From Eledone cirrhosa (Eukaryota): a stretch of 64,000 nt of DNA. Both the position numbers and the translations under genes were made by a program. The notes beneath the pieces were generated by a model. It saw nothing but the letters and a program-made list of their open reading frames with translations, was not told where the DNA came from and searched no databases. Below are positions 32,711 through 61,254 of this stretch, piece after piece; positions within the stretch are counted from its first letter, which is position 1, and each line of letters starts with the position of its first letter. The stretch spans positions 1,612,001 through 1,676,000 of the forward strand of contig OZ024753.1 of assembly GCA_964016885.1 (NCBI GenBank). Direction: 5' to 3'.

Positions 32711-33085
32711 CCTTTGTTTGTACTGCCTCTCTGTTTTCGTTCCCGTTCCAATTTTCACTATATATATATATATATATATATGCACTGACAGTAAAATTCC
32801 GTGCTCAATCGTATACATTACATAATAAATTACTGCAATTCATCAAAGAGAAAAATTGTTTTAGTTCAAGGCGAGGTTGTCACATTTTTGCAATAAGTAT
32901 TACTTACTGGTAACTGATACGAGGTACAAACCACTGGCAAATAGAGAAAATATATATATATATATGTGTAGAAGTTATATTTAAATTGTTGGGATACAAC
33001 AAGCATATATTTTTATAACTGATATAAAGCACTCAACAAATTATTGGAGTAAAAATACGATATATTAACAAATGGAAACTATATT

Positions 33086-33150
33086 TATTTCATTATACAT
33101 ATTTCAAGGACACCAAGTCAAATTATGGTGCGCTTTCATCAGATAAAATA
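33086..33150 (-). ncRNA. Minimal type I hammerhead ribozyme (family B paralog with a different stem II)
   Basis: Minus strand reads UAUUUUAU CUGAUGA AAGCGCACCA-uaauuugacu-UGGUGUCCUU GAAA U-AUGU-A UA AUGAAAUA. Flanks are homologous to 50540-50990. Confidence 0.85.
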
Positions 33151-35597
33151 TAATATAGATCAATTTTATAAATAAATATTGACATACCCTTAAAGAATGC
33201 GTCCATTTCTGTTGGAAGCTCCCGGATAGTGGGGTTATTAAATTTATTTAGTCTATTATGCAAATTAGTGTCGGATATGTTTAGATCACAGTAGATTTAA
33301 AATAAGCCGTTGGAGTATGGAAAAAGGAAAGAAAAAAAGAGAAAAAAGAAAAAAAGAGAAAAAAAGAAAAAAAAAGAAAAAAAGAGAAAAAAAGAGAAAA
33401 AAAGAGAAAAAAAGAGAAAAAAAAGAGAAAAAAAGAGAAAAAAAAGAAAAAAGAGAAAAAAAAGAAAAAAAGAGAAAAAAGAGAAAAAAAGAGAAAACAC
33501 GAAAAAAAAAGAAAAAAAAGAAAAAAGAGAAAAAAGAGAAAAAAGAAAAAAAAGAGCAAACTCTAAGAGGAAAATAAGAAAACAAGAGATATATATATAT
33601 AAAAGCTGCGGTGCTGGGGCTAGGGATATCACAATTCAGTGTAGTACTCTAGAAATGGGAAGATGCAAAGTGAATGGAAAGGAAGCTAAAAACCCGACTG
33701 CGACGTCTCTTCTATCACCTTGTCTCCTCCCGAGAAATACGTAACTACAGGTTCGGTTAAAATCTCTACTGTTTGTGTACAGCTAAGAATATATAGTATA
33801 CTTCTGTTATTTAATGCACAATTTAATGGATTTCTATAAAACACACTCACACAAACACTCTCCCTTTTTCTCTCTTCTTCGCACACACATATAGAACGTA
33901 TATAAATGTATATAAAACTATGTATATTTAAATATTTAATACTTGACTATACAATCAAATAAACATTTCCATTCAAATGCGATATAAACTTCTGAATAAT
34001 AAATATCCTTCTATTATATAACAATAAACTTATATATTGTCCATAGAATCTGTTTATACAACCTTGTCTTTTAAGAAAGATGCGCTCCGTTTTCAAGAAA
34101 GTCTTTATTTATTATCCACAGAAAGGCCATGTGATGTAAGTTTAGAAAGGTCAGCTGACATAAAACTTCTACTTTTCACTTAAGCTGGGTTAAAATGTTT
34201 CATATAATGAATATAGCTGGCAGCAATATCAGCAAAATTTCCCTTCAAGATTTCCGGAGGCAGAAAACCTATTGTAGATCATATAAATTGAAAGCTAAAT
34301 GAATCATATCCCTACCATATAGGTGGTAGACTGACAGAGTTAATACCTTCAGGCAATGACGGTAGCAAATGAGGTGTGTAACATGTGCTTTTCAATCAGA
34401 ATCTATAAAGTATATTTCAAGCTAGATGCCAACTCTTACGAACATTCATAATGAAAGCTAATAGTTACAGTATATAAACATAAATTAAATGTCATATACA
34501 AGAATTTGTTTGTATGAAATAATTTTATAAAATCATTGGAGCTCCATTTTACTCTTCGACGAAAAACAGTTTAAGAATTGAACGACTAAGCATGTTTGTT
34601 TTATATTACAAGAAAAATGTATCCAAAATGAACAGTTTGAAGGTGAAGTAAACACGAAGTCGAATGGATGCTCTCGTGTCATAAAACAGCTATATTTTGA
34701 TCAGGGCGCTGTTTTATCTTTGGACTGTATTTGAAGAATGCAAAGAAAGCCATAACAAACACTGCAAAGCATTCTATTAGATGTTCTAATGATTCTGCGA
34801 ATACACCGCTTGGATATTCTTTATGCATATAGAAATCATCTCAAAATCTTAAATCGAAGCGCTTGAATAAGTATTTGATACTTTTCCACAAGATTTTTGA
34901 AAATGTTTTTCTTTCGAAAGGTCTTCGAGCAAATGGAATAAAATACAATGTTAGTAATGTCACTCTACTCTAAAGCTATCCAGATAGATATATAGCCTTT
35001 GTGTGAGTTTGTATACAAATTGTAAATGAATACAAGTGTAGATCGATCCCAATGGCGTTAAAGCAAAGATTTTATGTCTACTTCAATAGTTATAACACAA
35101 AGTTTGGCATCTATTTTACAAAATAACACTCAATCATTATTATGCAAAAGTCGGTGGATTAGCAGTATCGGTAGAGGGTCGGACGCCATGCTTTCCAGCA
35201 TAGTTATGTCCCCTTACGATCTGAGTTCAAATCTCGCCGAGGTTGACTTGGCCTTTCATCCTTACGGGGTCGATAAAATAAAGTACCAGTAATGCACTGG
35301 GTAATTGCTGGCCTTGTGCCTAAAGTAGAAACAATTATTATGCTAAAGTCTCCTATTAGATATAATATATTAATTTGTTGGGTTATACTTTTTGTCACAA
35401 TATATGGCATATAAATCTTAAATTAATTCACTTATTTTGAGGATGGTTTTAATAATCAAAACTTCCAGAACATAATTAAATTTTATCTTATAAATGAAAT
35501 AATTAAAACATTAACAATTATTTTGATGGAAAATACGCTATATCACGCAGTTTATAGAGAGAGAGAGAGAGAGAGAGAACAACAGAAAATATAACTA

Positions 35598-35663
35598 CTC
35601 CATTACCAAAGGTTTCTGGATCCCAGGCAATATTAATATGTCTGGATCGGTCGTCAGACAGAG
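35598..35663 (-). ncRNA. Type I hammerhead ribozyme (CUGACGA core), left arm of palindrome
   Basis: Mirror copy with a better stem I (CUCUGU/AUGGAG). Confidence 0.65.
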
Positions 35664-35673
35664 ATGTTAACCT

Positions 35674-35739
35674 CTTTGTCTGACGACCGATCCAGACATA
35701 TTATTATTGCCTGGGATCCAGAAACCTTTGGTAATGGAG
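35674..35739 (+). ncRNA. Type I hammerhead ribozyme (CUGACGA core), right arm of palindrome
   Basis: CUUUGU CUGACGA [stem II, GAUCC..GGAUC] GAAA CC-UUU-GG UA AUGGAG. Confidence 0.6.
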
Positions 35740-35832
35740 TAGTTATATTTTGTGTTGTTCACTTTCTAATTAAATAGCTCTGTTTTATACATAGAGCACT
35801 CTTTTTTCCTTTGCTTTTTCTTCGGAATTACC

Positions 35833-60840: not shown

Positions 60841-61254
60841 GGAGGTGAGTTTTATTGTAGTACAATAAGGCAATGCAGATATCGGATAAGAAGCACTCTA
60901 CAGTTTGTAGGACTGGAGTATACATAATATATAAGATCAAAAGATGGTTAAATGAGTTCCATGTATTTTATTATGCGCATTTCAAAAACAAATATCATCA
61001 TGCAATAACATTTGTGTTCTCATCAGACAAAATAGGAGGACATAATATGAAGGTTAAAAACACTTGTGGATAGTGCAGTTTTAAAACAACATATATATAT
61101 ATATATACATACATATATATATATAGTAATAATAATAAATTTGAAGACTAAAATCCAAAGAGGGCTCGATAAGGATTTTATCGATAAGTTTCAGAAGATC
61201 TCGTTAAGGGTGAAAGCAGCGATTCTTTGCTTAAACTTTAATCTGTTATTTTAA

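Follow-up and report, generated by a model that had tools for sequence, protein, structure and literature searches.

Two hammerhead motifs in the 64-kb window, by which we mean the whole stretch of DNA analysed here, raise the question of whether a pair of related predicted ribozymes that differ most in stem II records selection on the ribozyme fold. The initial annotation held that it does: stem II was described as completely replaced, with pairing retained and no sequence similarity, and this was offered as the strongest internal evidence for such selection. We consider it likely (probability of about 0.85) that the two motifs, termed hammerheads A and B, are the pseudo-LTR (pLTR) hammerhead folds of sister subfamilies belonging to a Penelope-like retroelement (PLE), and that stem II diverged by single-base steps through extant intermediates, likely under selection for pairing in the source elements. 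What was observed is the location in pLTRs, the link to the ORF, the copy numbers, the stepwise series and the covariation across the family.

Hammerhead motifs and insertions in the window

Based on a pattern scan, the window contains six type I hammerheads, namely, A, B, an inverted twin of B, C and a pair with cores at 35657 and 35680. Hammerhead A (33086..33150, minus strand) consists of stem I (33150-33143 with 33093-33086), the core CUGAUGA (33142-33136), stem II (33135-33106) and GAAA (33105-33102), with the predicted cut after 33094. Hammerhead B (50792..50857, plus strand) has its core at 50800-50806, stem II at 50807-50837 and its predicted cut after 50849, and the twin, identical to it, lies at 50584..50649 on the minus strand (core from 50641, predicted cut after 50592). 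The type I assignment and the predicted cut sites of A and B given by the initial annotation were thus recovered. Hammerhead C (60964..61034, minus strand, core at 61026) is a more distant relative in the A/B family, with a 36-nt stem II region, C.U at pair 4 and flanks that are 58-64% identical. The CUGANGA core, GAAA and UH cleavage triplet are all present in type I order and occupy invariant columns of the alignment. Against the Rfam models, the locus 32900-33350 gave no hammerhead family at E<=10, and microsatellite-driven miRNA matches were among the best 150 of 334 for the whole window.

A and B each have an 8-bp stem I, a 2-bp stem III and a 4-nt loop. Helix II spans 10-14 pair positions, and helix III is small and palindromic; the self-pairing of AUAUAUAU extends over 8 bp in B and 6 bp in A. 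The core and GAAA of the two hammerheads are identical, as had been claimed, but the flanks, said to be identical as well, are only 86% identical, and stems I and III, which are present in both, differ by one base in stem I and one in the stem III loop. The stem II hairpin of A forms 9 of 10 pairs, the exception being C.C at pair 4. B has the same C.C and, in addition, A.C at pair 1 (10.1-11.1) and G.A at pair 8, so that the retention of pairing described for both hammerheads holds for A and falls short in B by these two pairs. The 10.1-11.1 position is paired in A and unpaired in B in register, where a shift to a G-C register would cost 2.6 kcal/mol; an extra base after A9, before G10.1-C11.1, is absent from A and appears in B only as a less stable alternative register.

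The supposed lack of sequence similarity between the two stem II hairpins proved wrong, since, when anchored on the core, they match at 18 of 31 positions, a level reached by 19 of 20,000 shuffles, and have the C.C at pair 4 in common; within the paired strands, 12 of 20 positions match. The B stem had initially been drawn without its first A and last C, which places it one base out of register with A. With this in-register identity and with single-base intermediates extant in the genome, stem II cannot be called completely replaced.

Element A (32966..33589, minus strand) is a 5'-truncated 3' end of PLE subfamily A, made up of 3'UTR and pLTR, and matches the pLTRs of the ORF-bearing locus L062 at 90-92% identity. 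Its pyrimidine microsatellite is expanded, 14 nt are deleted from the extension of stem I, and (TA)n lies on either side of the element. Element B (50540..50987) is one back-to-back insertion of subfamily B, with 99% identity to the pLTRs of locus L063, and is bounded by (TA)n tracts at 50519-50540 and 50989-51014. Its long arm lies at about 50729-50987 (plus strand) and its short arm at about 50730-50540 (minus strand); over 179 nt the arms are 99% complementary, with two hammerheads, and the fold-back has a predicted energy of -284 kcal/mol, in which a whole hammerhead would pair with its antisense copy. The extents initially annotated as homologous, 32965-33190 and 50540-50990, are indeed homologous, but element A reaches about 33589, and the second interval is one two-armed insertion. 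No ORF of the A/B PLE family was found within the 64-kb window. The window copies are truncated insertions, and any selection would have acted on the source elements.

The Penelope-like host element

A and B are 3' pLTR fragments of two sister subfamilies of one abundant PLE. In the 3.0 Gb genome searched, the motif of the 3' side of stem III/stem I gave 53,164 matches, compared with 4 for the reversed control, and exact copies from core to GAAA numbered 2,937 for B and 234 for window A. The full-length copies L063 and L064 consist of a hammerhead, an ORF of 737-738 aa, a 3'UTR and a second hammerhead, while L062 and L065 are broken A-type copies. Hammerheads in both pLTRs around the RT/GIY-YIG ORF were found in L063 (at 2526 and 6495, a distance of 3,969), L064 and L062; in some copies, the first hammerhead lies ~190 nt upstream of the 737-738 aa ORF and the second ~4 kb downstream. 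The protein identity between A-type and B-type ORFs is about 76%.

The ORF contains the motifs RWR (36), DKT (116), YRDD (350), CNCRDRSKC (594), CDLC (692) and CKH (719), and its C-terminal segment is GIY-YIG-like. Hydra-clade endonucleases are characterised by the lack of a CCHH motif; here, by eye, only one Cys was seen between the GIY and YIG halves. A Pfam search with three pieces of the ORF found no family. The sequence motifs of the element match the published description of PLEs of the Hydra clade (PMC8557442). As in Hydra-clade PLEs described by Craig et al. 2021 (PMC8557442), it has a C-terminal GIY-YIG, an RWK-like motif (here RWR), DKT, CxCx5C, CxxC and CxH, a terminal repeat that carries a hammerhead, (TA)n targets and inverted 5'-truncated copies; its unit of about 4.0 kb differs from those of that clade, which are described there as generally under about 3 kb. 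Among the Hydra hammerheads given in File S2 of PMC8557442, none had the stem I/core sequence of the A/B family, and the published Hydra hammerhead elements there include one from Octopus bimaculoides, the motif of which differs from that of the A/B family.

A sample anchored only on the 3' motif consisted of the first 100 matches on C1, of which 96 had a 5' core. (TA)5 was found within 260 nt downstream in 91 of these 96. In 76 of 96 copies, the core is preceded at a distance of ~45 nt by a splice-donor-like GGTA(T/C)GT, which in the window lies at ~33190-33182 (minus strand) and 50752-50760 (plus strand). The A/B homology begins at this motif, and the hammerhead may lie in a pLTR intron.

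Subfamily B is the youngest, as judged from its near-zero end branches and intact ORFs. At L178-L180 (G000:C7:78454457-78463081), three B-type ORFs lie head to tail at a spacing of 4,011 bp, each with an open frame of 738 aa, and this array is a candidate active tandem source. At L176, a B-type ORF starts directly after the (TA)n that closes the pLTR of another subfamily, which places a foreign pLTR and hammerhead upstream of the ORF.

The 3' ends of copies fell at two sites past the cut, S (+45-59) and L (+135-146), among 137 copies in L001-L156. A motif present twice, CTCC-N8-13-GAGYGCTTT, has one of its copies immediately downstream of each site (50540-50987; L063:2580-2770). In back-to-back inverted pairs, one S arm was joined to one L arm in 24 of 25 cases, and the 25th joined S to a full-length copy, with no LL or SS; the loci were mostly found with queries containing the L end, and the four pairs from the unbiased sample agree. 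This pattern is compatible with a repeated RNA motif marking two start sites for RT, one for each target strand. Tails at one end have already been published, and the CTCC...GAGYGCTTT motif was not found in the literature searched. The Poseidon PLE of Anolis (Frangieh et al. 2024, PMC11167929) likewise carries a hammerhead in its pLTR, has a 'tail' defined by two RT start sites, and uses AT-rich targets. It belongs to a different clade, and its hammerhead overlaps the start codon, whereas the hammerhead here lies about 190 nt upstream, with a tail of about 90 nt.

Stepwise change of stem II and probable selection on the fold

To order the subfamilies, we used 800 nt of the ORF from 57 distinct ORF-linked rows (from 74), read as an unrooted tree, in place of a short-flank tree that was too noisy for this purpose. 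The ORF tree is ladder-like, and stem II shifts along it in small steps, with single-base intermediates between A and B. After one neighbouring insertion, one divergent family and one row with an insertion had been dropped, 54 of the 57 rows were scored for stem II. Pair 2 was A-U in 11, G.U in 6 and G-C in 37, and pair 6 was C-G in 9 and U-A in 45, while pairs 3, 5 and 10 were invariant; the path of the helix would run through A-U, G.U and G-C at pair 2, and C-G and U-A at pair 6. Pair 1 was A.C in 19 of 54 rows, accounted for by two changes on the tree, and pair 8 took five states. Towards B, additional pairs first form within the loop (-12.2 kcal/mol), and pairs 8 and 1 are then unpaired (-4.9 kcal/mol). 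When contigs of two runs were compared with the B pLTR, 1-3 contigs of run X5 (organism B) had the letters of the intermediates at N7 and at pairs 1, 7 and 8, a weak hint that the B mismatches are derived.

Among the sampled copies, the 10.1-11.1 pair was A-U in 64 of 93, A.C in 14, G.U in 14 and G-C in 1. The C.C mismatch at pair 4 was found in 88 of 93, with C.U in family C and covariation in the neighbouring pairs, and it is possible that this position makes a tertiary or protein contact. Between A-type and B copies, differences amounted to 12 of 30 positions in stem II, 24 of 178 in the downstream pLTR and 43 of 78 at four-fold ORF sites. These rates make stem II a fast-evolving island in a conserved pLTR, and this is the contrast that the initial annotation had seen.

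We then assessed whether the retained pairs exceed chance. Between A and B, 8 differences (7 of them transitions) left 7 of 9 pairs, compared with 6.0 by random placement (p=0.37), a result that does not exceed chance; most of the changes are transitions, tolerated by G.U wobble. A and B are also separated by only one independent contrast per compensatory change on their tree, which leaves no power. Between A and C, all nine pairs were kept, compared with 3.7 expected (p=0.0004). In nine pairwise tests, only the two with C were significant (9/9 vs 3.7 and 3.5, p about 0.0004), and the rest gave p 0.06-0.38. Hammerhead C (60964-61034), and not the A/B pair as first proposed, is the best evidence within the window for kept pairing. 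More generally, two-copy comparisons of AU/GU-rich helices will retain most pairs by chance.

For the family-level comparison, 32 rows were aligned, in which 95.9% of cells were paired (stem I 99.6%, stem II 91.7% and stem III 100%), with two-sided changes in 8 of the 9 stem II pairs. The covariation score was 0.35, compared with 0.22 after shuffling (reached by 0 of 500) and 0.05-0.16 for slid controls; this support is inflated, because the rows were hand-picked from 76 distinct variants for recurrent types, a choice that favours pairing, and because the shuffle control ignores relatedness and thus shared ancestry. RNAalifold found stem II independently. In the sample anchored on the 3' motif, a comparison of shared with private variants found alternative pair types paired in 8 of 13 cases when present in at least 3 copies and in 4 of 18 when rarer (p=0.06). 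The core was intact in 92 of the 96 sampled copies, with N7 taking all four bases, and the 13 core bases were unchanged between subfamilies with flanks of 55-64% identity (P 0.0004-0.003; for A vs B, P=0.14). These observations indicate that the PLE family supports selection on the hammerhead fold, and that the A/B pair does not; the claim of selection on the fold thus holds at the level at which eight of nine pairs show compensatory change and in the comparison with C.

Function of the hammerhead and alternative readings

The fold predictions differ between the subfamilies. With 60-nt flanks, A-type stem II has pair probabilities of 0.93-1.0, whereas in B those of stem II are 0.25 or less and those of stem I about 0, and the hammerhead is not the predicted minimum, suggesting that B may be attenuated. 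In addition, the 2-bp stem III with its palindromic loop suggests that cleavage could be assisted by dimer formation. By extension from the PLE literature, active elements would be transcribed as tandem RNAs, and the ribozyme would cleave after AUA, probably weakly, helped by a second copy through the palindromic stem III or by the protein of the element; the RT/GIY-YIG protein would then insert 3' fragments into (TA)n by target priming. The window copies are likely inert by-products, and in B the 179-bp fold-back would bury both hammerheads if transcribed through.

Published accounts of PLE pLTR hammerheads that vary and covary date back to 2014. Cervera and de la Pena (PMC4209133) described type I hammerheads in the pLTRs of metazoan PLEs, in which helix II is long and helix III palindromic, and which occur as pairs on opposite strands, show compensatory changes and vary extremely within a genome; the minimal hammerheads cleaved weakly, and only as dimers, and variants without all of these features are listed. 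Compared with that description, the family here has an 8-bp extendable stem I, no extra base after A9 in A, and A-U, G.U or A.C at 10.1-11.1 in place of the conserved G-C, and its C.C at pair 4 is nearly fixed, with intermediates ordered on the ORF tree. In literature outside subscription journals, we found neither the A/B family nor a fixed C.C in a PLE helix II, although the supplementary alignments of PMC4209133 may hold similar motifs, and no measured effect of A.C at 10.1-11.1 was found there. The hammerheads of the pDo500 satellite of Dolichopoda (PMC2837043) similarly differ from copy to copy by compensatory changes in stems I and II, which were taken as evidence for selection, but they belong to a tandem satellite compared across cricket species, whereas the copies here are dispersed PLE subfamilies in one genome. 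Type I hammerheads with a weak helix III and kinship to PLE pLTRs are also known from metazoan non-LTR retrozymes (PMC7229834; bioRxiv 10.64898/2026.07.22.740005), which are short non-coding tandems, in contrast to the dispersed fragments of ORF-bearing elements described here. An identity as a non-LTR retrozyme was rejected, as the copies are dispersed or inverted pLTR fragments of a 4-kb ORF-bearing unit, with no short non-coding head-to-tail tandems.

A swap of stem II as a module, by recombination or template switching with an unrelated hairpin, would account for stem II varying more than any other part of the pLTR, which is otherwise conserved, and the hammerhead of another subfamily in the ORF-linked row L176 could be taken as an example. 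We regard such a swap as highly improbable and rejected it on the extant intermediates: A and B match at 18 of 31 positions, the C.C at pair 4 is common to both, the single-base intermediates are ordered on the ORF tree, and L176 is a B insertion adjoining the pLTR of another subfamily with (TA)n between them. Stepwise divergence under pairing selection is also to be weighed against loss of function, in which the hammerhead would be dispensable in the B lineage, stem II would be drifting into decay and B would spread without cleavage. The missing pairs 1 and 8, the fall in hairpin energy from -12.2 kcal/mol in the intermediate to -4.9 kcal/mol in B, and a B stem II that folds no better than shuffles (36/200) are all compatible with decay, as are the youth of B, its 2,937 exact copies and its many intact ORFs, together with the finding that cleavage was not needed for insertion in vitro (PMC11167929). 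However, the core, stem I and stem III are intact in B while N7 varies, U.U is frequent at the stem II base of published Hydra-clade hammerheads (PMC8557442 File S2), and an axolotl hammerhead with U.U still cleaves (PMC7229834). It is not unusual for stem II to start with a non-canonical pair, and decay in B seems rather unlikely to us.

The stems could instead be conserved for protein binding. In its broader form, this reading takes the structure as kept mainly as a platform for binding or folding that serves the PLE protein or the processing of RNA, and cleavage as secondary. It is consistent with the remainder of the pLTR being conserved between A and B to the same degree as the hammerhead (P=0.14 for the unchanged core) and with the C.C mismatch kept in 88 of 93 copies. 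In the anole PLE, the hammerhead cleaved only with protein, and mutating it left insertion in vitro unaffected (PMC11167929). Across distant subfamilies, however, the invariant positions are those of the catalytic core and the free one is N7, as catalysis predicts, and we judge a platform role unlikely. A more speculative extension of the preferred reading, stepwise divergence of the pLTR hammerheads, would treat the variants as a natural allelic series, in which stem II evolves near the synonymous rate, the fixed C.C is the sign of a tertiary or protein contact not yet described, the loss of pairs 1 and 8 has turned down the ribozyme of B, and the protein of the element, or dimer formation, gates cleavage. 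We hold this extension only tentatively, with the odds against it; if true, the allelic series and the duplicated motif downstream of the two 3' ends would make the role of PLE hammerheads directly testable. Published work calls the function of PLE hammerheads unclear, and what remains useful from the present comparison is that natural variants form a well-ordered series, which includes G.U intermediates and takes its order from the ORF, for tests of PLE hammerhead cleavage.

Other hammerheads and fold-backs were observed beside the A/B family. The region 35585-35830 contains a different inverted pair, with cores at 35657 (minus strand) and 35680 (plus strand) and a stem III loop CCUUUGG; relatives of it occur in L116, L118 and L027, and it is likely another PLE family. 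At 15689-15963, a long inverted repeat flanks a TA/CA microsatellite with sub-threshold miRNA matches, and is probably another fold-back insertion. Other hammerhead families were detected in the flanking DNA of L007, L013, L025, L033, L035, L038 and L054, and among these, tandem hammerhead units of 310 bp were found in L054 and of about 466 bp in L033 and L038.
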